Origin: an uncultured Clostridia bacterium | Lineage (GTDB): Bacteria > Bacillota > Clostridia > TANB77 > CAG-508 | Assembly (NCBI GenBank): GCA_934162255.1 | Contig: CAKPIG010000002.1 | Location: 85,938-149,937, forward strand | Length of the DNA stretch: 64,000 nt | Direction: 5' to 3' | Shown: in pieces, positions 11,339-50,541 of the stretch | Position numbering within the stretch: position 1 is the stretch's first letter | How the letters are laid out: each line of letters starts with the position of its first letter | Position numbers and translations under genes: made by a program | Notes under the pieces: model-generated | Told to the model about the DNA's origin: nothing | Seen by the model: the letters and a program-made list of their open reading frames with translations, nothing else | The model's database searches: none

Positions 11339-12946
11339 ATGACAGATTTAGAAATAGCCAGAAATGTGAAATTAGATGAAATTTCAAAAATTGCAGAAGG
11401 ATTAAATATAAGCCAAGATGATATAGAACAATACGGAAAATACAAAGCAAAAATTTCAAATAGTGCATGCGAAAAATTGAAAAATAAAAAAGACGGTAAA
11501 TTAGTACTTGTTACAGCAATGACACCAACTCCATTAGGTGAAGGAAAAACAACAATATCAATCTCAATTGCAGATGGATTAAAAAGAATAGGAAAAAAAT
11601 CAATATTAGCATTAAGAGAACCTTCACTAGGGCCTGTATTTGGAATAAAAGGAGGAGCAACAGGAGGAGGATATGCACAAATAGCACCAATGGAAGACAT
11701 CAATTTGCATTTCACAGGTGATATACATGCAATAACAGCTGCAAATAATTTATTATCTGCTATGATAGATAATCATATATACCATGGAAATGAACTCCAA
11801 ATAAAACAAGTTGTATGGAAAAGATGCATGGACTTAAATGATAGACAATTAAGAGTTGTGAACACAGGTCTATCAGGAGAAAAAAACATAAAACCTAGAG
11901 AAGATAAATTTGATATAACTGTTGCATCAGAGGTAATGGCAATATTATGTCTAGCAACAGATATAAATGATTTAAAAAGAAGATTAGGAAATATATTAAT
12001 CGGATACAACAAAGATAAACAACCAATATATGCAAAAGATTTAAAAGCAGAAGGTAGTATGACAGTACTACTAAAAGACGCATTAAAACCAAACTTAGTG
12101 CAAACATTAGAACATACACCAGCAATAGTACATGGAGGTCCATTTGCCAATATTGCACATGGATGTAATAGTATAATAGCAACAAAAATGGGATTAAAAC
12201 TTGCAGACTATTGCATTACAGAAGCAGGTTTTGGAGCAGACTTAGGAGCAGAAAAGTTCTTAAATATAAAATGTAGAAAAGCAAATATTACTCCAGATGT
12301 AGTAATTATTGTAGCAACAATAAAAGCACTGAAATATCTTGGAATAGATAATTTATATAAACATATAGATAATTTAAAAAACAAATTTGGATTAAATGTA
12401 ATTGTAGCAATAAATAAATTCAGTCAAGATACTGATTCTGAAATAGAAAGCTTACAACAAGACTTAAGTAAAAATAAAATAGAATCAAGCATTGTAGAAA
12501 GCTGGGCAAAAGGTGGAGAAGGAGCAATTGATATTGCAGAAAAAATAGTGAAAATTGCAGAAAAGGAAAATAATTTTAAATTTACTTATGAACTTGAAGA
12601 TAATATACAAGAAAAAATAAAAAAAGTTGCTCAAAACATATATGGAGCAAGTGATGTTGAATTTGAAGAAAATGCAAAAGAACAAATTGAGAAAATAGAA
12701 AAATTAGGATATCAAAATTTACCAATATGTATAGCAAAAACACAATATTCATTTTCAGATGATGCCAAAAATTTAGAATGCAAAGAACCATTTAAAATAC
12801 ATGTAAGAGATGTAGAATTAAAATCAGGAGCAGAATTCATTGTAGTAATTACAGGAAAAATAATGACAATGCCAGGACTTCCAAAAGTTCCTGCAGCAGA
12901 AAAAATTACAATAGACGAAAATGGAGAAATTGAAGGAATATTTTAA
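11339..12946 (+). CDS. fhs: formate--tetrahydrofolate ligase
   Basis: 535 aa. Has the TPTPLGEGKTT P-loop, the YGKYKAKI N-terminal motif and HGGPFANIAHGCNS. Confidence 0.97.
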   Translation: MTDLEIARNVKLDEISKIAEGLNISQDDIEQYGKYKAKISNSACEKLKNKKDGKLVLVTAMTPTPLGEGKTTISISIADGLKRIGKKSILALREPSLGPVFGIKGGATGGGYAQIAPMEDINLHFTGDIHAITAANNLLSAMIDNHIYHGNELQIKQVVWKRCMDLNDRQLRVVNTGLSGEKNIKPREDKFDITVASEVMAILCLATDINDLKRRLGNILIGYNKDKQPIYAKDLKAEGSMTVLLKDALKPNLVQTLEHTPAIVHGGPFANIAHGCNSIIATKMGLKLADYCITEAGFGADLGAEKFLNIKCRKANITPDVVIIVATIKALKYLGIDNLYKHIDNLKNKFGLNVIVAINKFSQDTDSEIESLQQDLSKNKIESSIVESWAKGGEGAIDIAEKIVKIAEKENNFKFTYELEDNIQEKIKKVAQNIYGASDVEFEENAKEQIEKIEKLGYQNLPICIAKTQYSFSDDAKNLECKEPFKIHVRDVELKSGAEFIVVITGKIMTMPGLPKVPAAEKITIDENGEIEGIF

Positions 12947-17312: not shown

Positions 17313-17501
17313 TTTTTATCCTCCTATGTGAAAAGACAATATTTCCTATATACTATACTAAATTGAAAATAAATTCAAGAGAAAATTGAAAAAATGTGCA
17401 AAAAATTTGGTTTGAAATTTATTGACAAAATAAGATAAATAAGTATAAAATAAAACAAAATGTTTTAAAATAAACATATCAAAAGAAGAAAGGATGGGAA
17501 A

Positions 17502-19217
17502 ATGAGAAAAAAGCAAAAAAGAACAGAAAGAGGAATAACACTAATAGCTTTAGTCGTAACAATAGTAGTGCTATTAATATTAGCAGGAACGACAATTGCA
17601 ATGCTGACAGGAGATAATGGGATAATAGCAAAGGCAGCAAAAGCAAAAGAAGCAACAGATAAAGCGGCAAGTGAAGAAGAGTTAGGATTGCAAAGAACAT
17701 TACAAGAAATAGCAAGTAGAGTACCATCAGTAGAAGGATATAATGATATAAAAAAAGTAAATAGCCCCAAATTAGCAGAGGGAATGATACCGGTAAAATG
17801 GAATACAAACAAAAATGTATGGGTTGTATGTGATGAAAACGATCCAACTTGGTATAACTATGACTCAAAAGAATGGGCAAATGTAATGTTGAGAGATGGT
17901 AGCAAGTATACACCAGGAAAAGATGTAGAAGAAGGAACAGAAATAGCTGATAAAGACTTAGGAAGCATGTACGTATGGATACCAAGATATGCGTATACAA
18001 TAACTAACACAAATAATAAAATAAATGTAACATTTGTAAAAGGAAACACAAATGAAGGAGTAAACGGAGAAATATTCACAACAGATGAAAGTGTAGACAC
18101 AACATCAACAAAATTAATACATCCAGGGTTTAATTTAGGAGGAAGTCCACTAACAGGAATATGGGTAGCAAAGTTTGAAGCAAGTGGAGTAGATGATAAT
18201 GGGAATGCAGTAGGAAATGCAAGCGAAAATAGTACAACTCAAATATATGCACCAAATACTAATACAATCGCACAAAGTCTACCAAATAGAATAAGCTGGA
18301 GACATATAACAATTGGAGAATGTGAACAAAGAAGCATGGAAGTTGCGACAAAAGATAGTTTTGGATTGAAAAATGCAAATAGCCACTTAATGAAAAATAG
18401 TGAATGGGGAGCAGTAGCATATTTATGTTATAGTGATTATGGAAGTGTACCACAAATAAATGCAGCAGGAACAATAAAAACGACACCATATTGGTACGCA
18501 TATGATATGTATGCAGGACAAGGACCAAAAACAAATGATTCAAACAATTATAGTACAACAAACGGAATGCTAGCAAGCACAACAGGAAATACAACAGGAG
18601 TATATGACATGAATGGTGGAGCATGGGAATATGTGGCAGCATACATAGATAATGGAAATAGTAATTTGAATAGTGGTAAAAGTTATTTCGAAAATCAAAA
18701 AGTAAAATCAATATATGCAAGCTTATGGGACGAATATGAAGCGAGTGAAGAAGAAAAGAAGAATAAAATTAAAATAGATGACCAGACAGAATTAACTCAA
18801 AGTGGATTATGGGGAGATTCTACTAATAAATTAGTAGAAATAAAATATCAAAATGCAAGAAAGAGATTGACACAAGCAGTATTTGATGGAATGGCAAAAC
18901 ATAAAGGAATAGGAGTAAATGAAATGACAACAACATTCTCATATTATACAGCATATCAAAATACAAATGGAGATTATGCACGAGGATGGTTTGTAGACCC
19001 AGAAGTAGCTGCAGCGGAGAAGACAAAAGAACAATATATATCAGGAGTAGCAAGATCATGGGATAATGATTTAATACGTATCGGGCATTCGTCTCGTCCG
19101 TTCGTGTACCGTGGTGGCGGTTTCAGTATCGGCGGTGGTGCTGGTGTATTCTATTCAGACGCGAGCTACGGTTACGGCGATAGCAGCAGAGGGTTCCGTC
19201 CAGTCGTTGTGGTGTAG
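17502..19217 (+). CDS. prepilin-like large surface protein with C-terminal FGE-sulfatase/C-type-lectin-like domain (putative pilus-displayed adhesin)
   Basis: 571 aa. The N-terminus MRKKQKRTERG/ITLIALVVTIVVLLILAG...MLTGDNGII is paralogous to the pilins at 25.8-27.2 kb. YVWIPRYAY, GIWVAKFEAS, NSEWGAVAY and the terminal RGGG...GFRPVVVV resemble the FGE-sulfatase/CLec fold. The last 141 nt are compositionally aberrant (see findings). Confidence 0.7.
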   Translation: MRKKQKRTERGITLIALVVTIVVLLILAGTTIAMLTGDNGIIAKAAKAKEATDKAASEEELGLQRTLQEIASRVPSVEGYNDIKKVNSPKLAEGMIPVKWNTNKNVWVVCDENDPTWYNYDSKEWANVMLRDGSKYTPGKDVEEGTEIADKDLGSMYVWIPRYAYTITNTNNKINVTFVKGNTNEGVNGEIFTTDESVDTTSTKLIHPGFNLGGSPLTGIWVAKFEASGVDDNGNAVGNASENSTTQIYAPNTNTIAQSLPNRISWRHITIGECEQRSMEVATKDSFGLKNANSHLMKNSEWGAVAYLCYSDYGSVPQINAAGTIKTTPYWYAYDMYAGQGPKTNDSNNYSTTNGMLASTTGNTTGVYDMNGGAWEYVAAYIDNGNSNLNSGKSYFENQKVKSIYASLWDEYEASEEEKKNKIKIDDQTELTQSGLWGDSTNKLVEIKYQNARKRLTQAVFDGMAKHKGIGVNEMTTTFSYYTAYQNTNGDYARGWFVDPEVAAAEKTKEQYISGVARSWDNDLIRIGHSSRPFVYRGGGFSIGGGAGVFYSDASYGYGDSSRGFRPVVVV

Positions 19218-19352
19218 TGCTTTTGGATGCAAGCTTATGTTGATTATAAAAACGAAAAAAGTTTGTCAAGATTAGTTGTTACACGGAAATTTTTATTTGA
19301 ATACTTTATTCTGATAATTGATAAATATTCAAATAAAATTCCAAAACACCTA

Positions 19353-19515
19353 TTGACAAAGATAAACAAAAATGGTAAAATAAATACTGTTACAAGAAGA
19401 AGTTATCCACTTCTCACCTTATCTATGAGGAAAAAGGTTAGAAAAAATAAGTTATAATAGTAATTATATCTATATTTTTGTGGAATTGGCTTGTAACAAA
19501 GGCCAATTTTTTTTG
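19353..19515 (+). promoter_or_regulatory. infC operon promoter plus L20-leader-like transcription attenuator
   Basis: TTGACA (19353-19358), a 17-nt spacer, then TAAAAT (19376-19381). Downstream, the hairpin aattggc...gccaatt (19484-19508) is followed by a T8 run before infC, the position occupied by the L20 leader in Firmicutes. Confidence 0.5.
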
Positions 19516-19570
19516 GCAAAGAAAAGATTAAAAATCACTTTTCTAAAAGCAAAAATAACGGAGGTGTTTT

Positions 19571-22805: not shown

Positions 22806-24416
22806 ATGCCAAGCTATCTAGGATTATATATTCAAGATAATTTAATAAAATATGCTAAAGTTTCAAAAGAAAAAGAAAGCATAAAAATAGATTCATATGG
22901 AATAAAATTTTATACAAATGTATACCAAGCAATAAAACAAATTATTGAAGAAACATATAGTTATAAAACACTGATAAGTACAAATTTAACAGAAGAATCT
23001 TATCAGTATTTTGAAATGTTTGCATTATTAAATAAAAAAGATTTAGAAAAGGCAATAAAACTAGAATTTGATTCATATTGTTCAGAGAAAGGATATAATG
23101 CAAATACTTTAGAAACAAGATATGCAATAGTAAATAATGCTGAGGATAAAGAAAAATTAAAAGTAATAAATATATGTGAAAATAAAATGGAACTAAGTAA
23201 AATAAATCAAAAATTTGATGGCTACAGATTAGGTACGATAGTTCCGATTTCTATGTCAATATCTAATATATTGAATGTAGACTCAAAAGAAAATGCATTA
23301 ATTGTAAATATAGATGACAATACAGTTATCACAAAAATAATAAATGGAAGCATATATGATGTAGAAACTTTAGATGAAGGAAGCAAAGAAATATTACAAG
23401 CAATCAGTTTAAAAGAAAATTCTTACTCAAAAGCATATGAAATATGTCAAAACACAACAATATATACAGCAGATGTTCAAGATTTTGCTGAAACAGCAAG
23501 TACTCATTTAGAAGATATAATGCCAACTTTATACAACATTGTTGGAAAAGTTCAAAAAATAATAAATGAAAGTTCTGAACAAATAAACAAAGTATATATT
23601 ACAGGAACACTTTCATGTGTAAACAATATTGATTTATATTTTCAAGAATATTTGGGAAAAGTAAAATGTGAAATACTAAGACCATATTTTATACCAAATA
23701 CAACAAGTGAAATAAATATAAAGGAATATATTGAAGTAAACTCTGCAATAGCACTAGCATTACAAGGACTAGGTGAAGGAGTAAAAGGAATAAATTTTAA
23801 AAAGAATGCACCAGGAGAAAGTTTCTGGAATATTCAAATAGGCGGAGGAAAGAAAGAACCAAAAGGTAAGAATTCCAAAGTTGATTTAGGTGGATTTAAA
23901 GATAAGTTTTCAATACAAGAAATGGGATTAGTAAGAGGAATTACATCTTTACTATTATTTGTTATCATATTTAGTATATTCTCAACATTACTAGTAAAAC
24001 AAATAGAAAATAAATCAAATGTTATTGATGGAGTTACATCAGAGATAAATGTACAAATATCAAAAGTAAATAGAGATACTTCAACACTAAGTACACAAAA
24101 AGAGCAATATACACAATTAATTAAAGACTTGGAAGAAGCAAATCAAAAAATTAGTGATATAAATGCAAGCAAAAATTTAATACCACAATTGTTAAACAAC
24201 ATAATGAACACAATAGATGCAACAGTACAAATAACATCAATAGAAAATACTACAGGAAAGCATATTGTAATAACTGCACAATCAGCAAAATATCCAGGAC
24301 TAGGATATTTCAAAACAAAATTAAAAACAAATGGAATACTTCAAAATGTTGTTTCAGGAAGTAGTATGAAACAAAATGGAGTAATTATAGTAACGATAGA
24401 AGGTGATTTACCATGA
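22806..24416 (+). CDS. pilM: type IV pilus assembly protein, PilM-like actin-fold ATPase fused to a PilN-like TM/coiled-coil segment
   Basis: 536 aa. The N-terminal ~330 aa have a PilM/FtsA-like pattern (GL.I....IK.A). They are followed by a TM helix (LLLFVIIFSIFSTLLV) and a coiled-coil/beta C-terminal part like PilN. First gene of the pilus cluster. Confidence 0.7.
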   Translation: MPSYLGLYIQDNLIKYAKVSKEKESIKIDSYGIKFYTNVYQAIKQIIEETYSYKTLISTNLTEESYQYFEMFALLNKKDLEKAIKLEFDSYCSEKGYNANTLETRYAIVNNAEDKEKLKVINICENKMELSKINQKFDGYRLGTIVPISMSISNILNVDSKENALIVNIDDNTVITKIINGSIYDVETLDEGSKEILQAISLKENSYSKAYEICQNTTIYTADVQDFAETASTHLEDIMPTLYNIVGKVQKIINESSEQINKVYITGTLSCVNNIDLYFQEYLGKVKCEILRPYFIPNTTSEINIKEYIEVNSAIALALQGLGEGVKGINFKKNAPGESFWNIQIGGGKKEPKGKNSKVDLGGFKDKFSIQEMGLVRGITSLLLFVIIFSIFSTLLVKQIENKSNVIDGVTSEINVQISKVNRDTSTLSTQKEQYTQLIKDLEEANQKISDINASKNLIPQLLNNIMNTIDATVQITSIENTTGKHIVITAQSAKYPGLGYFKTKLKTNGILQNVVSGSSMKQNGVIIVTIEGDLP

Positions 24417-25234
24417 GAAAGATATTATTAGGAGTATTGGTAGCTTTACTATTAGCACTTTCAGTATATACAGCAGTTTATGGTATTTCACTTGGAAATA
24501 TAAAAATTAGTGGGATTCCATTAATTAAACAAAAAAATGCTGAACTTGAAACAAAAATAGAAAAGGCTAATCAATTAAAAAATGAAACATATCCATCTAG
24601 TGTAAATAAACTAGAATCAGAATACAAAAATTTAATAAGTGAAAAAGAAAGATATGAACAAATTGTTGAATTAGGCGTTGACGCAAATGGACAACCATTA
24701 AACAAAATTCAAGAATACGAAGTTGAAAAAATTTGGGTAACAATGGGAAACTATGCTAAAAAACAAGGTGTAGATTTAAAAATGGATGTTAGCCAAAACA
24801 ATGAAATAAGCAAAAGTTATGATTTAACATTCACAGTAACAGGTGGATATATACAAATTACAGACTTTTTATATGATGTAGAAAGAGATAGCACTTTAGT
24901 ATTTAAACTAGAAAATTTCAAAATGGTACCAGGTTCAAGCAACAGTAACAATAACAATAACAGTAGTAATTCTAGTAGTAATAGTAATAGTTCTAGTAGT
25001 AATAGCAATAGTAGCTCTACAGGAACTTCAGAAAAGAAAACAGATGATAATGATAATCTAGAAGCAACATTTGTATGTAAAGATATTAAACTTAATATAT
25101 CAGGAATAAATACTGTAAAAACAGATAATACAAATTCATCAAATGGAACAAGCGGAACAGGTACATCAGATACATCAACACAAAATAATAGCAATGATAG
25201 TACAACTTCAACAAATAGCAATTCAAATTCATAA
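24413..25234 (+). CDS. PilO-like pilus assembly membrane protein with Ser/Asn-rich tail
   Basis: 273 aa: N-terminal TM, coiled coil, then a ferredoxin-like segment (YDLTFTVTGGYIQITDFLYDVE) resembling PilO. Overlaps pilM by 4 nt. Long S/N low-complexity C-terminus. Confidence 0.5.
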   Translation: MRKILLGVLVALLLALSVYTAVYGISLGNIKISGIPLIKQKNAELETKIEKANQLKNETYPSSVNKLESEYKNLISEKERYEQIVELGVDANGQPLNKIQEYEVEKIWVTMGNYAKKQGVDLKMDVSQNNEISKSYDLTFTVTGGYIQITDFLYDVERDSTLVFKLENFKMVPGSSNSNNNNNSSNSSSNSNSSSSNSNSSSTGTSEKKTDDNDNLEATFVCKDIKLNISGINTVKTDNTNSSNGTSGTGTSDTSTQNNSNDSTTSTNSNSNS

Positions 25235-25252
25235 AAGAAAGGGGTAAATGGT

Positions 25253-25711
25253 ATGAACAAAACAATTATGAGAGAAATAATAATAGCATTATTGATATGT
25301 TTAGCAATACTACTTATATTGGCAGTAGCTTTATATAATTTTATTCCAGCAAATAAAGTTGTACCAGAAGTAATAAAATACACACCAACAAGTGAAATAC
25401 AAACACAGTTAAATTCAGAAGTGGAAGATAATTCAAAAGAAATTCTTATGACATATGAAATAACGGCACAAGACTTAGAGAATTATAGAAAAACAAAAGA
25501 TTATCAACCAGGAAAGGCAAACCCTTTTGCTGAGTACAAAGAAGACACTGGAGATGAAAGTACTGGAACAGGAAACACTAACACATCAAATGGTAGTACA
25601 AGCACAGGAAGCAGTAATAACAGCCAAACAAATCAAGGTAGTGGAACAACATCAAAAGACAATAATAGTAGTTCAAGTGGAAAGTTGTTCGAAAATGGTT
25701 CAAGTAAATAA
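25253..25711 (+). CDS. membrane-anchored hypothetical protein of the pilus cluster
   Basis: 152 aa with one TM helix and an S/T/N/G-rich tail. Has an RBS (aaagaaagggg). Position suggests a pilus accessory role, but no family is recognised. Confidence 0.4.
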   Translation: MNKTIMREIIIALLICLAILLILAVALYNFIPANKVVPEVIKYTPTSEIQTQLNSEVEDNSKEILMTYEITAQDLENYRKTKDYQPGKANPFAEYKEDTGDESTGTGNTNTSNGSTSTGSSNNSQTNQGSGTTSKDNNSSSSGKLFENGSSK

Positions 25712-25775
25712 GGTTATATTTAATAACTTAAATATATTACAATAAATTTCAAGATAAAAAAGGGGGGAAATACTT

Positions 25776-26249
25776 ATGAAGAATCAAAAAGGTGTAACAT
25801 TAATCGCTTTAGTAGTAACAATTGTAGTATTATTAATACTAGCAGGAGTTGCAATAGCAATGCTAAGAGGAGATAATGGAATATTAAAAGAAGCAACAAC
25901 AGCTTCAAAAGAAACAGATTTAGGTGAGCAAAGAGAAGCAGTTCTTAATGTCATAAATGAAGCTACAACAAAATATTATGACTTAAAATATGTACAAAAT
26001 AGTGCAACAATTAAAGAAGTAACACAAGCACAATATATAGCAAAAGAATTAATAACTTCTAGTAAGTCAGGAGCATTACAGAATAAAGTAACTATTACTT
26101 ATGCAGATGCTGGTGAGACTGCTATAGGAGATGTATTAACATATACAGGTAAAAAAATAAAAATAAAATTAGCTGCAGATACTTCAAAAACAGCAATATA
26201 TGATACTGAAACAAATCCAACAGGAGACCTAATTACAAGTTGGAATTAA
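25776..26249 (+). CDS. type IV pilin paralog 1
   Basis: 157 aa. MKNQKG/VTLIALVVTIVVLLILAGVAIAML is a prepilin leader (Gly-1, hydrophobic helix) but with Ala at +5. Strong RBS aaaagggggg. Confidence 0.8.
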   Translation: MKNQKGVTLIALVVTIVVLLILAGVAIAMLRGDNGILKEATTASKETDLGEQREAVLNVINEATTKYYDLKYVQNSATIKEVTQAQYIAKELITSSKSGALQNKVTITYADAGETAIGDVLTYTGKKIKIKLAADTSKTAIYDTETNPTGDLITSWN

Positions 26250-26284
26250 AATATAAAATATTAATAAATAAAGGAGAAAAAACA

Positions 26285-26746
26285 ATGAAAAATCAAAAAG
26301 GTGTAACATTAATTGCTTTAGTAGTAACAATTGTAGTATTATTAATACTAGCAGGAGTTGCAATAGCAATGTTAAGAGGAGATAATGGAATATTAACAGA
26401 AGCTGCAAAAGCTTCAGATTCAACAAAAATATCAGAAGAAAAAGAAGCAGTTTCAAACGCAATAAATGAATTGACAACAAAATATTATGACTTAAAATAT
26501 GTAGAAACAAATACAACATTAACAAGTGCAATTGAGGGAAAAAAACAAGGACAATATATAGCAGAACATTTAAATGATAAAGTAAGTTCTAAAGTTGATA
26601 TATCAAAAGATGAAAGCACAGGAAATTTAACAATAAAAACTAAAACTGTATATACATCAGGAACAGACAAAGGAAAAGTTGAACAAGCAACATATACTGC
26701 AGAAACAGGAACTCTTAGTGATTGGACTAAAGTAACAAAAGAATAA
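26285..26746 (+). CDS. type IV pilin paralog 2
   Basis: Start moved to the ATG at 26285 (RBS aaaggagaa), giving MKNQKGVTLIALVV.... The first ~115 nt are nearly identical to paralogs 1 and 3. Confidence 0.8.
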   Translation: MKNQKGVTLIALVVTIVVLLILAGVAIAMLRGDNGILTEAAKASDSTKISEEKEAVSNAINELTTKYYDLKYVETNTTLTSAIEGKKQGQYIAEHLNDKVSSKVDISKDESTGNLTIKTKTVYTSGTDKGKVEQATYTAETGTLSDWTKVTKE

Positions 26747-26761
26747 AGGAGAGAAAAAACA

Positions 26762-27199
26762 ATGAAAAATCAAAAAGGTATAACATTAATCGCTCTAGTA
26801 GTAACAATTGTAGTATTATTAATACTAGCAGGAGTTGCAATAGCAATGTTAAGAGGAGATAATGGAATATTAAAAGAAGCAACAACAGCTGCAAGCGAAA
26901 CAAAAAAATCAGAAGCTGAAGAAGCTATAAATAATGCAATAAATGAAGGGACAACAGCATATTATGATAAGAAATATGTAACAAAATCATTTGAAGCTGC
27001 AGAAGAAAATTTTAAGGATACTCAAGCAAAATATGTAGGATATTATTTAAAAAATAAAGCTACAAATTTATCAGAATATGTAGAAAATTTTGGAGAATAT
27101 ACAAAAGATAGTACAAAATTAGTTATAAAGGTAAAAGGTGATTATGGTGGTGCAGTGTATGAATACAATACAAATGGTACATTAACAAAAACTAATTAA
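26762..27199 (+). CDS. type IV pilin paralog 3
   Basis: 145 aa, MKNQKG/ITLIALVV.... Shares the conserved 5' block with paralogs 1 and 2, then diverges. Confidence 0.8.
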   Translation: MKNQKGITLIALVVTIVVLLILAGVAIAMLRGDNGILKEATTAASETKKSEAEEAINNAINEGTTAYYDKKYVTKSFEAAEENFKDTQAKYVGYYLKNKATNLSEYVENFGEYTKDSTKLVIKVKGDYGGAVYEYNTNGTLTKTN

Positions 27200-27207
27200 T
27201 TTAACAA

Positions 27208-27232
27208 CAGGCATATACTAAGTATATGCCTG
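27208..27232 (+). terminator. hairpin after the pilin triplet (possible partial terminator/attenuator)
   Basis: 10-bp perfect stem caggcatata-ctaag-tatatgcctg. The T-tract is weak, so it may only attenuate read-through into pilD. Confidence 0.5.
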
Positions 27233-27262
27233 TACTAATATAAAACAAAGGAAGGCAAGGAA

Positions 27263-28078
27263 ATGAACATATATTTATATGTAGTAATATTCATGATAGG
27301 AACAGTATTCGGAAGTTTTTATACACTTGCGGTGTATAGAATACCACAAAATATAGACATAGTAAAAAAGCACTCATATTGCCCAAATTGTAATAACAAA
27401 TTAGGCTTTTTTGAGTTGATACCTGTACTAAGTTATATATTATTAGGAGGAAAATGCAAACATTGTGGTAAAAAAATAAGACCAAGATACTTGATATTAG
27501 AACTATTAGGAGGAATATCATTTGTAGTGTTAGCAATTGCACTAAAAATAGATGCTAGAACAATAAATTTACAAACAGCAATAATATATGCATTCACTGT
27601 ATTATATTTTACAGCAATAGTGCTAATTGCAGGAATAGACAAAGAACATATAAAAATAGAAAAAAGAGTCCTTGCATATGGAATAATCATATCAATTTTA
27701 TATATGATATATCTATATACAATAGGCTATGCTAGTATATATAGATATGCTATATATTTTCCTATATACTTAGCTACATATGCAGTATTATTAATAATAG
27801 ATTCACTTTTCTTAAGAAAACAAGCAGAAGATAGTTATTTAATAAATACACTAATATTATTAAATATGATATTAATATTTTCAGGGTCACAAAGGTATTT
27901 AATGACAGTTATAATGTCAATTATAGCAATATTAGTATATGTACTAATAAAAAGAATAACACAAAGAAAAAACGGAAATGTGAAATTGAAATTTAAAGAA
28001 ATTCCAATAGGATATTTTATATGTGCAAGTAATATAATTGTAATTTTCATGATGACAATTTTAACAAACATACAATAA
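27263..28078 (+). CDS. pilD: prepilin peptidase (A24 family, PilD)
   Basis: 271 aa polytopic membrane protein. Has the CPNC...CKHCGKKI zinc-knuckle pair in the first cytoplasmic loop and the AGIDKEH aspartate motif. Confidence 0.85.
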   Translation: MNIYLYVVIFMIGTVFGSFYTLAVYRIPQNIDIVKKHSYCPNCNNKLGFFELIPVLSYILLGGKCKHCGKKIRPRYLILELLGGISFVVLAIALKIDARTINLQTAIIYAFTVLYFTAIVLIAGIDKEHIKIEKRVLAYGIIISILYMIYLYTIGYASIYRYAIYFPIYLATYAVLLIIDSLFLRKQAEDSYLINTLILLNMILIFSGSQRYLMTVIMSIIAILVYVLIKRITQRKNGNVKLKFKEIPIGYFICASNIIVIFMMTILTNIQ

Positions 28079-28093
28079 AAATGGAGGACAAGT

Positions 28094-28519
28094 ATGAAAT
28101 CAGAAAGAGGTATAACATTAACTTCTGTAATGATATATGTATTAGTTTTTACAATAGTTGTACTGACAATAGGTAGAATAACAACATATTTTTATAAAAA
28201 TGTAAAAACATTATCAACAAGTACAACTTCATATGGGCAATATACAAAATTTAATAGTTACTTTTCTGAAGAAGTAAACATAAAAGAAAATACTGTAGAA
28301 ATTCAGGAAGATGATAAAACTAAAAAAATAATATTTTCAGAAACAAATAATGTATATACATGGACTGAAAATAAAATATTCAGAAATAAAGTAAAAATAT
28401 GTAGCAATGTAAAAGATTTTAATTGCTCATATAATTCAGAGACTGGAGTTATAACTATCAGTTATAAAATCAACGGAGAGGATGCTCCACTTACAACGAA
28501 TTACACAATAGCAAAATAA
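28094..28519 (+). CDS. minor pilin/pseudopilin-like protein
   Basis: 141 aa. MKSERG/ITLTSVMIYVLVFTIVVL is a prepilin-like leader with Ser at +5. Located between pilD and pilB. Confidence 0.65.
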   Translation: MKSERGITLTSVMIYVLVFTIVVLTIGRITTYFYKNVKTLSTSTTSYGQYTKFNSYFSEEVNIKENTVEIQEDDKTKKIIFSETNNVYTWTENKIFRNKVKICSNVKDFNCSYNSETGVITISYKINGEDAPLTTNYTIAK

Positions 28520-28536
28520 CAAAGGAGGACAATATA

Positions 28537-30174
28537 ATGGATGTAAGAAAACGTCAACCAATAGGAATAGAACTTGTAAAAAGAGGAATAGTAAAAGAAT
28601 CAGATATAGAAAATGCTTTGCTAGAGCAAAAGAAAAATCCTAATAAAAAAATAGGAGAAATTTTAAATGAATTAAAAGTATGTGATTCACAAATATTAAT
28701 AGAAGCAATTGGAGATATAATAGGTGTAAAAGGCATGATATTAAGCCAATCACAAATAAAAATTGAAGTATTAGATTATGTTTCATTAGAAATTGTAAGA
28801 AAAAATAGAATGGTTCCATTTGAAATAGAAAATGGAAAAATAAAAGTATGTTTTGCAGATACAACAAATACAAGAAATATAGAAACAGTAAGATTATTAA
28901 TGTTAAATAAAGGCCTAATAATAGACCCATATATCACATTTGGAAGTATTATTGATGAAATAATAAGTAAATTAGGTGGTTCTGTAGATAAAGACATGTC
29001 AAGAATAGGACAAGATAATAATATAACAGAAATAGTTGATACAATAATAAAAACAGCTATGGAAAAAAGAGCAAGTGATATTCACATCGAACCATTAAGA
29101 GATGAAATAAGAATTAGATACAGAATAGATGGAGAATTGTTTACAGAAACTACACTTCCAAAATCTAAACAACCTCAAATAATAGGAAGATTAAAAGCAA
29201 TTTCTAATATGCATCAAGAAAAACAAGAATCACAAGATGGTAGAATCTTATTATATGATGATTATAATATCCGTGTATCTTCTCAAAAAAACGTATGTGG
29301 AGAAAAATTTGTATTAAGACTATTAAAAAAGAATACAAATATTAGAAATATATTTGAACTTGGATATCCAGGAACAGAACAAAGTTTAAATAAGAGTATA
29401 AACAAAAGAAATAGTATAACAGTAATTGCAGCTCCTACAGGAGAAGGAAAAACAACATCATTATATAGTTTCATTGATTATTTGAACAAACCAGAAATAA
29501 ATATAACAACAATTGAAGACCCTGTTGAAATACGTATAGATGGTCTAAACCAAATAGAAATTGATTCAAAAGCAACATTTTCAGACTCTTTAAGAACAGT
29601 ATTAAGACAAGATCCTGATATTATTCTAGTTGGAGAAATAAGAGATAAGGAAACTGCTGAAATTGCAATACAAGCAGGACAAACAGGACATTATGTATTA
29701 TCAACAATACACACAATTGATGCAATAGAAGTAATCACAAGATTAAGAAAAATAGGATTGACAGATTATGATATAGCAAGTACACTTGCAACAAGTATTT
29801 CACAAAGACTATTAAGAAAATTATGTCCACATTGTAGACATGAAAGAGAATTCACTCAAGAAGAAAGAGATATAATCGCAAGTATTGGTCAAAGATATAA
29901 TGTAGAATTTGACTTAAATGGAAAAACAACATTTGATGCAATTGGATGTGATAAATGTAATAATACAGGTTATTATGGAAGAACAGGAATATTTGAAATA
30001 CTTGATATAACAGATGATATAAAAGAACTTATAATGAAAGGTGCATCAAGTATCGAAGTAAAAAGACAAGCACTAACAGGAAGTTATAAGCCACTTTGCA
30101 TAGATGGAATTAACAAAATACTAAATGGAGTTACAAATTTAGAAGAATTAAATAGAAAAATACTATTATTTTAA
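28537..30174 (+). CDS. pilB: type IV pilus assembly ATPase PilB (GspE family)
   Basis: 545 aa. N-terminal T2SSE_N/MshEN-like domain, Walker A APTGEGKTT, the Asp box/His box region (ILVGEIRD, GH.VLST.HT) and a tetracysteine motif (CPHC...CDKC). Confidence 0.92.
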   Translation: MDVRKRQPIGIELVKRGIVKESDIENALLEQKKNPNKKIGEILNELKVCDSQILIEAIGDIIGVKGMILSQSQIKIEVLDYVSLEIVRKNRMVPFEIENGKIKVCFADTTNTRNIETVRLLMLNKGLIIDPYITFGSIIDEIISKLGGSVDKDMSRIGQDNNITEIVDTIIKTAMEKRASDIHIEPLRDEIRIRYRIDGELFTETTLPKSKQPQIIGRLKAISNMHQEKQESQDGRILLYDDYNIRVSSQKNVCGEKFVLRLLKKNTNIRNIFELGYPGTEQSLNKSINKRNSITVIAAPTGEGKTTSLYSFIDYLNKPEINITTIEDPVEIRIDGLNQIEIDSKATFSDSLRTVLRQDPDIILVGEIRDKETAEIAIQAGQTGHYVLSTIHTIDAIEVITRLRKIGLTDYDIASTLATSISQRLLRKLCPHCRHEREFTQEERDIIASIGQRYNVEFDLNGKTTFDAIGCDKCNNTGYYGRTGIFEILDITDDIKELIMKGASSIEVKRQALTGSYKPLCIDGINKILNGVTNLEELNRKILLF

Positions 30175-30194
30175 TACTAAGGGGGAAATGTCTA

Positions 30195-31301
30195 ATGGTT
30201 AATATGGACAAAATAATTGAACAAGCAATAGAAAAGGACGCATCAGATATACATTTAATGTCTGGATTAAAACCAATGTTTAGAATTACAAGAGCATTAG
30301 TGGAAGCAGAAAATACAGAAATTTTAAAAGATGAAGATATGTATGAAATATATGATTATATCGTAAAAGGAAATGTAGATAAAGATAAAGTATTTACAGA
30401 AACACGAAAATTGGATACATCTTATGAATTCAATGATATTCGTTTAAGGGTAAATATTTCATATGCAAATGAAGTTCCAATTTGTACAATGAGACTTATA
30501 AAAAATGAGCTACCAGCATATGAAGACTTAGGAGTTCCTGATATAGTAAGAAGAATGACATATCAACCACAAGGATTAATACTTGTAACAGGAAAAACAA
30601 ACTCAGGTAAATCAACAACATTAAATGCATTAGTAAATCATATAAATGAAACACAAAATAAGAAAATATTATCATTAGAAAGCCCTATAGAATATAAGCA
30701 CAAATCAAAAAATTCAATGATAGTACAAAAAGAAGTAGGACCAGGAAGAGATTGTTTGACATATCATGATGGTGTAAAAAATGCATTAAGAGAAGACTGC
30801 GATATTCTAGTAATAGGAGAGATTAGAGACAAAGTAACAATGGAAGCTGCAATAGAAATGGCAGAATCAGGACACTTAGTAATAGGTACACTTCATACAA
30901 AATCATGTGCAGAAACAATAGACAGAATGATAAACTTCTATGAAGTAAGAGACCAATCTCAAATAAAATATTTATTATCAGCATTATTAAAACTTGTAAT
31001 ATCACAAAGATTACTAGTTGGAACTTCAGGAAAACTTGAATTAGTACCAGAAGTAATGGTTGTAGATAATATAGTAGCAGGTGTTATGAGAAAAGAAAAA
31101 ATAAGTGTATCTGAAATAGAAGATGCAATTCAAAGTGGTCAAGAAAAAGGAAGTATCAGCTTAATAAACTCAATAGCACAACTATTTGTAGATAACAAAA
31201 TAACTCTAGAACAAGCAAAAATGCAAGTTGAAGAGAAAAATATTGAAACATTAAACAGAACGATTATGCAATTAAAAATAAAAAAAGGAAATAATTTTTA
31301 G
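30195..31301 (+). CDS. pilT: type IV pilus retraction ATPase PilT
   Basis: 368 aa. ASDIHL, Walker A GKTNSGKSTT, ILVIGEIRD and GHLVIGTLHT match. It lacks the N-terminal domain of PilB. Confidence 0.9.
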   Translation: MVNMDKIIEQAIEKDASDIHLMSGLKPMFRITRALVEAENTEILKDEDMYEIYDYIVKGNVDKDKVFTETRKLDTSYEFNDIRLRVNISYANEVPICTMRLIKNELPAYEDLGVPDIVRRMTYQPQGLILVTGKTNSGKSTTLNALVNHINETQNKKILSLESPIEYKHKSKNSMIVQKEVGPGRDCLTYHDGVKNALREDCDILVIGEIRDKVTMEAAIEMAESGHLVIGTLHTKSCAETIDRMINFYEVRDQSQIKYLLSALLKLVISQRLLVGTSGKLELVPEVMVVDNIVAGVMRKEKISVSEIEDAIQSGQEKGSISLINSIAQLFVDNKITLEQAKMQVEEKNIETLNRTIMQLKIKKGNNF

Positions 31302-31316
31302 GTAAGGGAGAGAACA

Positions 31317-32660
31317 ATGCCAGTATATGTATATAAAGCAGTAACAGATAAAGGTCTAATTGTAAAAAACAAGGTTGAAGAACCTAGTAAACAAGACTTG
31401 ATAAAAAAACTAAAAAACAATGATATTACACCAATTGAAATAATTCAAGTTGCATACAAGAAAAAAACAAGACAGAAAAAGAATGTTACTAATATAAAAG
31501 ACATTATAAAAGATGTAAATACAACACAATTAGATAGAAGAATGCCAGCAAAGCAAATATCAGCTATTGAAAAGCTAAACTTATATTTGGCTGCGACAGA
31601 AAAAGTAAAAACCAGAGATATAATAATTTTTACAGAAAACTTTTATTTATTAAAAAAGGCAAATTTCAATAATATTCACGCATTAAATACGATTATAAAA
31701 AGTACAGAGAATATCTCATTAAAAGGTATATTAGAAGATGTATTAGCAGGAGTAGAAGCTGGAGAGTATATGTATACAACATTGGAATATTATTCAGATG
31801 TATTTCCATTCATATATATAAATATGATAAAAGTAGGGGAATTATCAGGTTCATTAACAAATTCTTTAGGCCAAGCAGTAAAATATCTAGAAGATAATGA
31901 AAGAATAACAAAAAGGATAAAAAGTATAGTAATACCAAATATTATACAATTTGTTGTAATATTAGCATTGTTAATAGGAGGAACACTATTTGCAATACCA
32001 CAAATTCAAAACCTATTTGATGAAATAGGATCACAAGCTACATTACCAAAAATAACATTGTGGTTCCAGAGTTTTATAAATCTGGTGTTAAAATATTGGT
32101 ATATACCAGTACTCGTAATAGCTGGAGTAATAGCAGCAATATTAACATATGTTAATACACCAGTAGGAAAATATAAATACCATTATTTTAAATACACAAT
32201 GCCTGTATTTGGAAAATTAATATTCTCACTAGAATTTTCAAGATTAATGAAAGCAATGCACTTAAACCTAGAAAATGGAATGAGAATTCAAGAAGCATTA
32301 GATGTAAGTAAATCAGTAAGTAAAAACTATGTAATGTTATCAATAGTTGAAACATCAATAAACAATATGTTAACAGGTTATTCATGGATAGATCCATTTG
32401 AAAAATCAGGATTTTGCTCTCCAATGATAACAGAAATGTTAAGAATAGGAATGCAAACAGATATAACAGAAATGTTAGGAAAATTGCTAGAATACATGGA
32501 TATGGACATAAACAACACAATAAATAGAGTAATGAAAGTATTACCTGAAATTGCTTATTCAATTGTAGGTATAGTATTAATATTCTTCGTATGTGTAGTT
32601 TTAGTACCAGTAATTCAAGTATACATGGGAAACTTCTTATTCTCAGCATATGGAGTTTAA
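31317..32660 (+). CDS. pilC: type IV pilus platform protein PilC (GspF family)
   Basis: 447 aa. Shows the duplicated GspF-domain pattern with three or more TM segments. Follows pilB/pilT. Confidence 0.88.
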   Translation: MPVYVYKAVTDKGLIVKNKVEEPSKQDLIKKLKNNDITPIEIIQVAYKKKTRQKKNVTNIKDIIKDVNTTQLDRRMPAKQISAIEKLNLYLAATEKVKTRDIIIFTENFYLLKKANFNNIHALNTIIKSTENISLKGILEDVLAGVEAGEYMYTTLEYYSDVFPFIYINMIKVGELSGSLTNSLGQAVKYLEDNERITKRIKSIVIPNIIQFVVILALLIGGTLFAIPQIQNLFDEIGSQATLPKITLWFQSFINLVLKYWYIPVLVIAGVIAAILTYVNTPVGKYKYHYFKYTMPVFGKLIFSLEFSRLMKAMHLNLENGMRIQEALDVSKSVSKNYVMLSIVETSINNMLTGYSWIDPFEKSGFCSPMITEMLRIGMQTDITEMLGKLLEYMDMDINNTINRVMKVLPEIAYSIVGIVLIFFVCVVLVPVIQVYMGNFLFSAYGV

Positions 32661-35574: not shown

Positions 35575-35651
35575 GCTCCCATAGCTCAGTTGGTCAGAGC
35601 AACCGGCTCATAACCGGTGGGTCCTAGGTTCAAGTCCTAGTGGGAGCACCA
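35575..35651 (+). tRNA. tRNA with CAT anticodon (elongator Met or lysidine-modified Ile2; loop CTCATAA favours Ile2)
   Basis: Cloverleaf read by hand: acceptor GCTCCCA/TGGGAGC, D arm GCTC-AGTTGGTCA-GAGC, anticodon stem ACCGG/CCGGT with loop CTCATAA, T arm CTAGG-TTCAAGT-CCTAG, encoded CCA. G1-C72 pairs, so it is not an initiator. Confidence 0.9.
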
Positions 35652-50465: not shown

Positions 50466-50541
50466 GCCACTATAGCTCAGTTGGTAGAGCGACGGATTCG
50501 TAACCCGTAGGCCAGCAGTTCGATTCTGCTTGGTGGCACCA
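50466..50541 (+). tRNA. tRNA-Thr(CGT)
   Basis: Acceptor GCCACTA/TGGTGGC, D arm GCTC-AGTTGGTA-GAGC, anticodon loop TTCGTAA, T arm AGCAG-TTCGATT-CTGCT, encoded CCA. Confidence 0.92.

Follow-up and report, generated by a model that had tools for sequence, protein, structure and literature searches.

A probable remote variable region of a diversity-generating retroelement at the end of a type IV pilin-like gene in an uncultured gut Clostridia bacterium

The DNA analysed here (the window) is a stretch of 64,000 nucleotides from contig CAKPIG010000002.1 of an uncultured Clostridia bacterium. Directly upstream of infC-rpmI-rplT it carries a gene whose protein combines a type IV pilin-like N-terminal module with a large C-terminal, putatively ligand-binding module (Table 1). 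An identical protein is encoded on the ENA contig ERZ27287511:k141_363914. The subject of the present study is the 3' end of this gene, which stands out by its composition and which an earlier note, made from the letters of the DNA, had proposed to be the variable region (VR) of a target of a diversity-generating retroelement (DGR). Our analysis supports the view that the end of the gene is such a region, in a remote copy at which mutagenic homing has probably become rare or has stopped.

The last 141 nucleotides of the coding sequence (CDS), 19077-19217, contain 57.4% G+C and 13.5% A (58.0% and 13.0% over 19077-19214), compared with 27.9% GC and 43.3% A in the whole window and 33.7% GC and 45.4% A in the remainder of the CDS. 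The stretch beginning at 19077 is the GC maximum among all 141-nt stretches of the window, and this is the sole region that reaches 50% GC. Synonymous codon choice flips as well. Arginine is encoded by CGT four times and AGA once in the tail, but by AGA 13 times and CGA once in the body; glycine by GGT, GGC and GGG (6, 3 and 2 codons) in the tail and by GGA, GGG and GGT (37, 3 and 3) in the body. Phenylalanine, tyrosine and isoleucine of the tail are TTC (4/4), TAC (3/4) and ATC (2/2), whereas the body mainly uses TTT, TAT and ATA. Because of this flip, the amino-acid content of the tail does not explain the GC-rich block. The same composition is present in the tail of a 56%-identical paralogue from another genome (15% A and 54% GC in a locus of 27% GC). 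When recomputed over 19077-19214 and the CDS, the composition figures and the codon flip given in the earlier note hold, and the CDS, the tail peptide and three upstream motifs are as quoted there; its description of the local composition as below 30% GC is right for the window average and wrong for the gene body (34%).

The gene belongs to a large family. Searches of the protein collection for homologues gave 7,057 and 4,956 hits, none of them with a Pfam annotation, and all hosts of the family are uncultured gut Clostridia (from humans, chickens, rabbits and ruminants). Alignments of the family give the tail consensus RIGHSSxPFVxRGGxFxxGGxAGVFxSxAxxGxGxxxxGFRPVVVV, in which about 15 positions have the highest entropy of the whole protein and the residue set of NNC codons, set within an invariant scaffold. 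The earlier note had remarked that an adenine-poor block conserved as a non-variable module in homologues would speak against a VR; what is conserved is the scaffold, while about 15 codons are hypervariable. In a cluster of proteins 94-98% identical to one another (P0084), 33 of the 42 variable columns lie within the last 46 residues. Some members of this cluster (P0265 and P0277), and likewise loci L042 (11494-11635), L044 and L037, read the 3' end in another frame and end in ...RFPSSCGCALAL or ...SARCWSCSTLK in place of ...GFRPVVVV. The shifted frames of the P0084 cluster look like indels within the VR; the TR (see below) of L042 is in the same shifted register, and therefore a whole sub-lineage uses the shifted frame.

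Several copies of the family occur per genome, dispersed among housekeeping genes, with at least three paralogues on one contig of 1.6 Mb and six loci in one metagenome-assembled genome (MAG). The closest relatives of the window gene (92% and 89% identical) lie in different genomic contexts. Contigs very commonly end inside or at family genes or their TR (L004, L012, L018, L019, L086-L088 and L098-L101). Such ends are the signature of a multi-copy repeat that breaks short-read assemblies, and MAGs therefore probably under-count both family members and DGR cores.

A survey of 78 family loci from representative genomes reveals a retroelement beside some of these genes. An open reading frame (ORF) of about 370 aa with YxDD and [ILV]GxxxSQ motifs is present in 11 of the 78 loci, mostly directly downstream of the family gene, and all eight of the ORFs submitted to Pfam were identified as RVT_1 (E 1e-15 to 1e-19). 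Between the family gene and this reverse transcriptase (RT) sits a second copy of the tail, the template repeat (TR). TR/VR pairs were found in six loci, with 21/22, 13/14, 13/13, 15/17 and 17/17 of the mismatches falling on TR adenines. A bAvd gene (E 1e-19 to 1e-23) and a small gene for MutS domain I (MutS_I, E 1e-8 to 1e-10), referred to below as MutS-like (MSL), lie 5' of the RT gene. Two layouts occur, a convergent one (target>TR> <RT<avd<MSL) and a divergent one (<TR<target, then MSL>avd>RT). Directly 3' of each TR there is a conserved element with compensatory changes in 14 of 26 predicted pairs, which Rfam identifies as RT-14 RNA (RF02921; 51.3 and 49.9 bits, gathering score 48.1) on the strand of the TR and target. 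Its structure consists of a long-range closing helix and two covarying hairpins; the two copies at L084 2776-2928 (+) and L005 2541-2697 (+) are convergent with the RT gene. The RT-14 RNA is probably the 'spacer' of the DGR RNA that primes cDNA synthesis, and our literature search found no paper tying RT-14 to DGRs.

Cross-contig matching within single MAGs shows that VRs lying away from a cassette are similar to the TR, most mismatches falling on adenines and 3-10 on other sites. With these 3-10 non-adenine mismatches the matching is not clean enough to prove homing in trans. One of the DGR lineages, P0123, has an unrelated TR; its MSL/bAvd/RT core has two integrase/transposase (rve) genes within a few kb (L089 1028-3241), and some such cores may therefore sit on mobile elements.

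The lineage closest to the window gene has an active element. In its closest homologue (L084, the 92%-identical relative) a TR lies 110 nt past the stop codon and a truncated bAvd gene lies at the contig edge. With the MutS-like protein of this locus as probe, complete cassettes of a sister lineage were recovered, with tex < TR < target on one side and MSL > bAvd > RT on the other, the TR being transcribed from the strand opposite to that of the RT. The MSL protein of these loci is about 140-145 aa long. A nucleotidyltransferase/HEPN pair, resembling a toxin-antitoxin system, lies between target and MSL in two loci of this lineage (L093 927-1471 and L094 719-1263).

One TR sequence is identical in four samples (L095, L096, L097 and L103). 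Compared with it, four cassette-adjacent VRs are changed at 14-19 of the 30 adenine sites and at none of the 99 other sites, and two of the loci (L096 and L097) differ at 0 of 1620 positions in the gene body and at 18 of 129 in the tail. The DGR of the sister lineage is clearly active, judging from these comparisons. A remote paralogue (L085) differs from the sister TR at 16/30 adenine sites and 1/99 others. The TR itself shows no more than 1 nt of difference between lineages that are 8-10% apart in their gene bodies. Of its 30 adenines, 28 are at codon positions 1 or 2, and 11 codons are AAC or AAT; the 17 variable codons per TR allow about 10^16.5 protein sequences. A small CACTTT..AAGTG hairpin directly follows the cassette-adjacent VRs. 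The remote VR of L085 is followed (11759-11800) by the first ~45 nt of a TR-type 3' flank (CACTTCGATACACAAAGAAGCATAAAGGCTTC...) and has no VR-type hairpin, which hints that this copy may derive from a duplicated TR-containing segment or from cDNA extending past the TR. Three further loci of this DGR lineage (L087, L099 and L101) come from assemblies ERZ272870xx-72xx, which belong to the study series that also includes the source sample of the window.

The tail of the window gene is homologous to the sister-lineage TR over its last 43 codons. It differs from the TR shared by the four samples at 16 of 30 adenine sites and 5 of 99 others, and from the TR of the closest homologue at 16/30 and 6/99 (Fisher p = 5e-8); 14 of the 17 adenines of the window VR are at TR-adenine sites. 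Four of the five scaffold differences are GC>AT and three are synonymous. The GC-rich 3' end (19191-19217) is identical in the TR and all VRs of the lineage, save for the window's G>A at 19202 (CCA for CCG). By analogy with the Bordetella phage model described in PMC5758913, this segment would act as the site of initiation of mutagenic homing (IMH). The earlier note had placed the start of the VR at 19077, where the composition does switch; homology with the TR of the sister lineage begins only at the equivalent of 19089, and the TR of other lineages extends a few codons further 5'. The adenine-specific TR/VR pairs, the RT, bAvd and MutS_I genes confirmed by Pfam at homologous loci, and the 16/30 and 5/99 differences found here together bear out the proposal of a DGR variable region, and we regard it as almost certain that the window block is a VR made by a DGR.

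Blastn with short words and an adenine-tolerant sliding comparison found no TR-like copy in the window or on either flank. Within the window and about 9 kb on each side (~82 kb), no match to RT, bAvd or MSL was obtained with hidden Markov models (HMMs) at E <= 10, the positive control giving 1e-64 to 1e-209, and no RT-14 RNA was found; this RNA is present at the TRs of sister loci and marks the template locus, not the target. Because TR, RT-14 RNA, RT, bAvd and MSL are all absent from these ~82 kb, the window copy is a remote target, with no DGR core for at least 26 kb upstream of it and 54 kb downstream. The statement in the earlier note that TR, Avd and RT are missing from the window, and that the target would be remote or orphaned, thus extends to the flanks. 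The lack of a nearby RT does not exclude membership of a DGR, since remote targets are an accepted category (PMC5758913).

Comparison with a positional orthologue suggests how the window VR has behaved in the recent past. Protein P0020 (locus L105) is encoded in the same context (DUF4912, the gene, infC-rpmI-rplT, spoVA and the type IV pilus (T4P) cluster); identity to the window is 97.3% in the T4P/spoVA flank and 92% over the DUF4912-infC segment. The gene body (17502-19076, compared with L105 1247-2830) is 12.1% diverged, with 61, 43 and 83 differences at the three codon positions, which points to rapid evolution, or to exchange among paralogues, beyond the VR as well. The orthologue and one of the complete cassettes (L097) come from one sample, and its VR differs from the TR of that sample at 15/30 adenine sites and 5/99 others; only the G>A at 19148 is a scaffold difference common to the orthologue and the window. 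Between the window VR and that of the orthologue, 17/30 adenine sites and 8/99 others are different, and so at least one mutagenic homing event has occurred at the window locus since the lineages split. The VR of the orthologue's type is identical in at least six samples with differing gene bodies. The CACTTT..AAGTG hairpin is not present after the window VR (z = 0.25) and is degenerate in the orthologue. As the TR varies by 1 nt at most between lineages with gene bodies 8-10% apart, a divergent source TR is less likely than drift of the VR after the most recent homing. The scaffold drift, the missing flanking hairpin and the static VR of the sister clade suggest that homing at the window copy is rare or has stopped, and on balance we favour the view that the VR is now rewritten rarely or not at all.

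The N-terminal module of the protein has the leader MRKKQKRTERG, followed by ITLIALVVTIVVLLILAG and a small globular part. Three pilin genes of a T4P gene cluster lie downstream, the target gene being ~3.6 kb outside this cluster. The module matches the three pilins in tblastn with E 1e-13 to 1e-16 (36% identity over 163 aa to 26276-26725), and the N-termini of target and pilins are nearly identical (RG followed by ITLIALVVTIVVLLILAG), in agreement with the earlier proposal that the prepilin-like leader is paralogous to the pilins at 25.8-27.2 kb. PDB matches to the N-termini of geopilin and MshA are weak. The cluster also encodes a prepilin peptidase, PilB, PilT and PilC, and this machinery would process and assemble the target protein and so display it on the pilus.

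The C-terminal module is a probable C-type lectin (CLec) fold of the FGE type. A profile of 15 divergent family members has as its best PDB match TaqVP (5VF4), a DGR variable protein with the FGE-type CLec fold, at a marginal E of 0.0022 and 0.0052 in three colinear segments, and in the last of these the family VR is aligned inside the VR of TaqVP. The next top matches of the profile are SUMF2 and PvdO, both FGE-fold proteins. The Pfam family FGE-sulfatase (PF03781) stays below its cut-off with E 0.0009-0.009; the window protein reaches 16.2 bits (cut-off 23.3) and the best family member 19.4 bits, and 5 of 71 members have E < 0.01. The fold proposed in the earlier note thus gains a marginal profile match, whereas the FGE-sulfatase score stays below its cut-off. 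Such a module may be expected to bind ligands.

Table 1. Features of the target gene, its variable region and the type IV pilus cluster (window coordinates)
Feature	Position	Strand	Basis or remark
Target gene, 571 aa: pilin-like N-terminal module and large C-terminal putative ligand-binding module ending in the VR	17502..19217	+	ORF
Putative sigma-70-like promoter, TTGACA-18-TAAAAT	17422..17451	+	11/12 consensus matches; ~50 nt 5' of start codon
Type IV pilin-like module, residues 1-159	17502..17978	+
C-terminal module, ~410 aa, probable FGE-type C-type-lectin fold	17979..19217	+	divergent-family profile
A-poor, GC-rich 12 nt, CGT ATC GGG CAT	19077..19088	+	directly 5' of present TR homology
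VR, 129 nt (last 43 codons), homologous to sister-lineage TR	19089..19217	+	comparison with TR
VR sites with TR adenine, first 15	19095, 19107-09, 19119-20, 19125-26, 19128-29, 19137-38, 19153, 19157, 19159	+	TR alignment
VR sites with TR adenine, other 15	19164-65, 19167-68, 19173-74, 19179-80, 19182-83, 19185-86, 19188-89, 19216	+	TR alignment
Scaffold differences from lineage TR	19096 T>G, 19127 C>T, 19148 G>A, 19190 C>A, 19202 G>A	+
Invariant GC-rich 3' end of VR (GGGTTCCGTCCAGTCGTTGTGGTGTAG), expected IMH position	19191..19217	+	TR/VR comparison
Type IV pilus gene cluster	22806..32660	+	Pfam A24_N_bact, T2SSE, N_methyl; NCBIfam
T4P pilins	25776-26249, 26285-26746, 26762-27199	+	6.5 kb downstream of target
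Prepilin peptidase	27263-28078	+
PilB	28537-30174	+	NCBIfam E 1e-124
PilT	30195-31301	+	NCBIfam E 9e-96
PilC	31317-32660	+	GspF/PilC E 4e-49

Several observations weigh against this interpretation. In the ~82 kb of the source contig that were covered, neither the cognate TR nor its RT has been seen. A scan with a pattern of the VR scaffold gave no hits in the viral collections or in the genome collection, which holds representative genomes and not the source genome; this first pattern fixed C at the third position of codon 536 (AAA in the TR) and could match VRs only. The corrected pattern gave no hits in the metagenome and viral collections, and none of the complete cassettes recovered with the MutS-like probe is from sample ERZ27287511. 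Only one VR sequence is known for the window lineage, two assemblies of which differ by 3 SNPs in 21.7 kb, none of them in the gene. As for the pilin-like module, the Pfam match of the target to N_methyl (E 0.009) is below threshold, 19 of 71 family members matching. A canonical type IV pilin has glutamate at position +5 of the mature protein, and the alanine found there in the target and the three pilins (G/VTLIA or G/ITLIA; 17532-17550 and 25776-27199) is unusual; the low N_methyl score is probably due to this alanine. The CLec fold rests on the marginal profile match (E 0.0022). AlphaFold2 models have a mean pLDDT of 47 for the full length and, with a more diverse alignment, of 53 for the C-terminal module (VR below 40), and are too poor to use; the top Foldseek match of such a model is again TaqVP and is not significant (E 1.9, TM 0.17).

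The five scaffold differences could also be present in the TR of the source genome itself. The window copy would then be a fully active remote target whose VR is being rewritten now, a possibility that we take seriously and consider somewhat doubtful. The occurrence of this DGR lineage in the study series of the source sample, the finding of the orthologue and a complete cassette in one sample, and the nearly perfect match of the remote paralogue to the TR (1/99) are all in its favour, as is the concentration of the differences between the window and its orthologue at adenine sites. The VR moreover keeps its reading frame and is intact, its 3' anchor is nearly perfect, a strong promoter-like site precedes the gene, and three of the five changes (giving GTA, CCA and AGT) would be harmless in a TR. 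However, five differences would be unusual in a TR that stays within 1 nt across lineages 8-10% apart in their gene bodies, and four of the five are in the GC>AT direction expected of drift in a genome of 28% GC. The orthologue has five scaffold changes of its own against the TR of the same sample, with only one common to the window; its VR is static in at least six samples, and the flanking hairpin is missing from the window copy. These points argue for a VR that was rewritten by homing and has since drifted.

It is also conceivable that the present VR was made by a DGR elsewhere and that a paralogous target then donated it to the window locus through gene conversion or homologous recombination. 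The scattered paralogues of these genomes could serve as donors, the closest relatives of the gene lie in other contexts, and the gene body is 12% diverged compared with ~3-8% in the flanks, as exchange between paralogues could leave it. No donor was identified, however, and the differences between the window and orthologue tails are concentrated at adenine sites, while the non-adenine sites (8%) are diverged about like the body. Homing followed by drift therefore needs no extra event, and we consider gene conversion unlikely. A block unrelated to DGRs, whether a horizontally acquired patch, a by-product of Gly/Arg/Val-rich sequence or a structured RNA or attenuator for the infC operon, might be suggested by the position of the gene directly upstream of infC-rpmI-rplT and by its Gly-rich tail. 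The synonymous codon flip speaks against amino-acid content as the cause, the adenine-specific relation to the TR and the RT/Avd cassettes beside homologues would go unexplained, and the adenine-specific TR/VR relations refute such a reading for practical purposes. For the structured RNA in particular, the fold of the block is no better than that of shuffled sequence (z = +0.44), and the sole Rfam match nearby is the L20 leader, outside the gene.

This L20 leader (RF00558) was found 5' of infC-rpmI-rplT at 19388-19520 (+), with E 2.7e-8 and 48.4 bits (gathering score 58.7), and it has a promoter-like site of its own, TTGACA-17-TAAAAT, at 19353-19381. An ORF of 76 aa (19227-19457) overlaps the leader and is probably spurious. 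Two tRNA genes at 35575-35648 and 50466-50538 (+) are the sole Rfam matches above the gathering score in the window and its flanks. Upstream of the target gene, the putative promoter is proposed from its match to the consensus.

The interpretation that the gene ends in a remote VR, rewritten at least once and now rarely or no longer, implies the following course of events. The genome would carry elsewhere a DGR core with a small MutS-like gene, bAvd, RT and TR, and with an RT-14 RNA just 3' of the TR. The RT would copy the TR RNA into cDNA with random bases opposite adenines, and the cDNA would replace the VR, anchored at its invariant GC-rich 3' end. Because the scaffold codons of a TR must avoid adenine, the scaffold is written in CGT, GGT/GGC, ATC, GTG and GCT and not in the AGA, GGA, ATA, GTA and GCA that are the usual choice of this genome, and the AAC/AAT codons of the TR would appear as NNC/NNT in the VR. 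The C-terminal module, a probable C-type lectin of the FGE type, would display some 15-17 variable residues (~10^16 sequences). The window copy would have been rewritten by mutagenic homing after the split from its positional orthologue, and its scaffold would then have drifted.

Remote-target DGRs have been described earlier. In Treponema denticola (TvpA) and the 'Lineage 4' cellular DGRs, targets are scattered round the chromosome, some of them more than 100 kb away (Wu et al. 2018, PMC5758913). The system described here has the VR at the 3' end of the ORF, as they do, and would resemble them further in having one RT/TR core that acts in trans on several scattered targets. However, the Treponema system has an HRDC accessory gene, whereas the sister lineage here uses MSL and bAvd; the targets here have a pilin-like N-terminus, and the window copy is linked to the TR of a sister lineage and not to one from its own genome. 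A small MSL gene together with avd defines the 'Architecture D' DGRs, an MSL gene is also present in the Legionella DGR, and TR and RT on different strands also occur among surveyed DGRs (PMC5758913). The sister loci, with MSL, bAvd and RT and with the TR on the strand opposite to the RT, are similar in this respect. In contrast to that survey, in which MSL was found in only 16 DGRs, MSL here accompanies a target family of several thousand members.

As in TaqVP, TvpA and Mtd, the VR consists of the last ~40 residues and ends in ...RGG...G.R...V, but the module described here is larger (~410 aa) and fused to a pilin module, and the similarity to TaqVP is marginal (E 0.0022). TaqVP has no surface-targeting signal according to its paper. 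Type V pilus adhesins of Bacteroides (bioRxiv 10.1101/2024.11.15.621889) provide another parallel, in that a DGR of a gut bacterium diversifies the adhesive component of a pilus. The pilus here is, however, of type IV, the phylum and protein family also differ, and type IV pili, Firmicutes and Clostridia are unmentioned in that work. PilB of Streptococcus sanguinis, a modular type IV pilin (PMC8179133), likewise has a pilin N-terminal module fused to a larger functional, adhesive module in a Gram-positive bacterium with a T4P cluster. Modules of that kind are not hypervariable, unlike the protein studied here, which ends in a DGR VR, has alanine at +5 and is encoded ~3.6 kb outside the T4P cluster. 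Our literature search found DGRs, variable proteins and type IV pilins brought together in no paper, and the only trace of type IV pilin-linked DGR targets is a single survey line that names a 'G-type pilin' domain as one of the rare domains bearing a VR. DGRs, remote targets, MSL genes, CLec variable proteins and RT-14 RNA are thus all already described, and the mechanism is ordinary for a DGR. The target architecture, the family size and the difference in rewriting rate between paralogues have not been described.

Where the 3' end of a gene in an AT-rich genome abruptly becomes A-poor and GC-rich and its codons flip, this reliably marks a DGR target and can be read from the sequence alone even when the retroelement is out of view. 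The constantly rewritten cassette-adjacent copies and the nearly static copy next to infC form a natural experiment on the competence of remote VRs for retrohoming, for which the flanking hairpin and a perfect IMH are possible factors.

To our knowledge, DGRs are the only natural system of targeted protein hypermutation in prokaryotes. They are densest in the gut, and work so far has mainly concerned phage tail fibres and, recently, the type V pili of Bacteroides. The locus described here points to a Firmicutes counterpart, in which a variable DGR module has been grafted onto a type IV pilin in a family of several thousand hits with no Pfam annotation and with several paralogues per ~1.6 Mb genome among essential genes. 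Tentatively, and with a little less than even confidence, we suggest that small-genome gut Clostridia possess a large, unannotated family of modular type IV pilins with a lectin-like module programmable by a DGR, in which scattered paralogues would be rewritten in trans by one chromosomal MSL/bAvd/RT core at rates that differ from copy to copy (constantly next to a cassette, occasionally next to infC), with the pilus as display platform for hypervariable adhesins. Should pilus display hold true, these poorly known, uncultured gut Clostridia would possess a system of variable adhesins.

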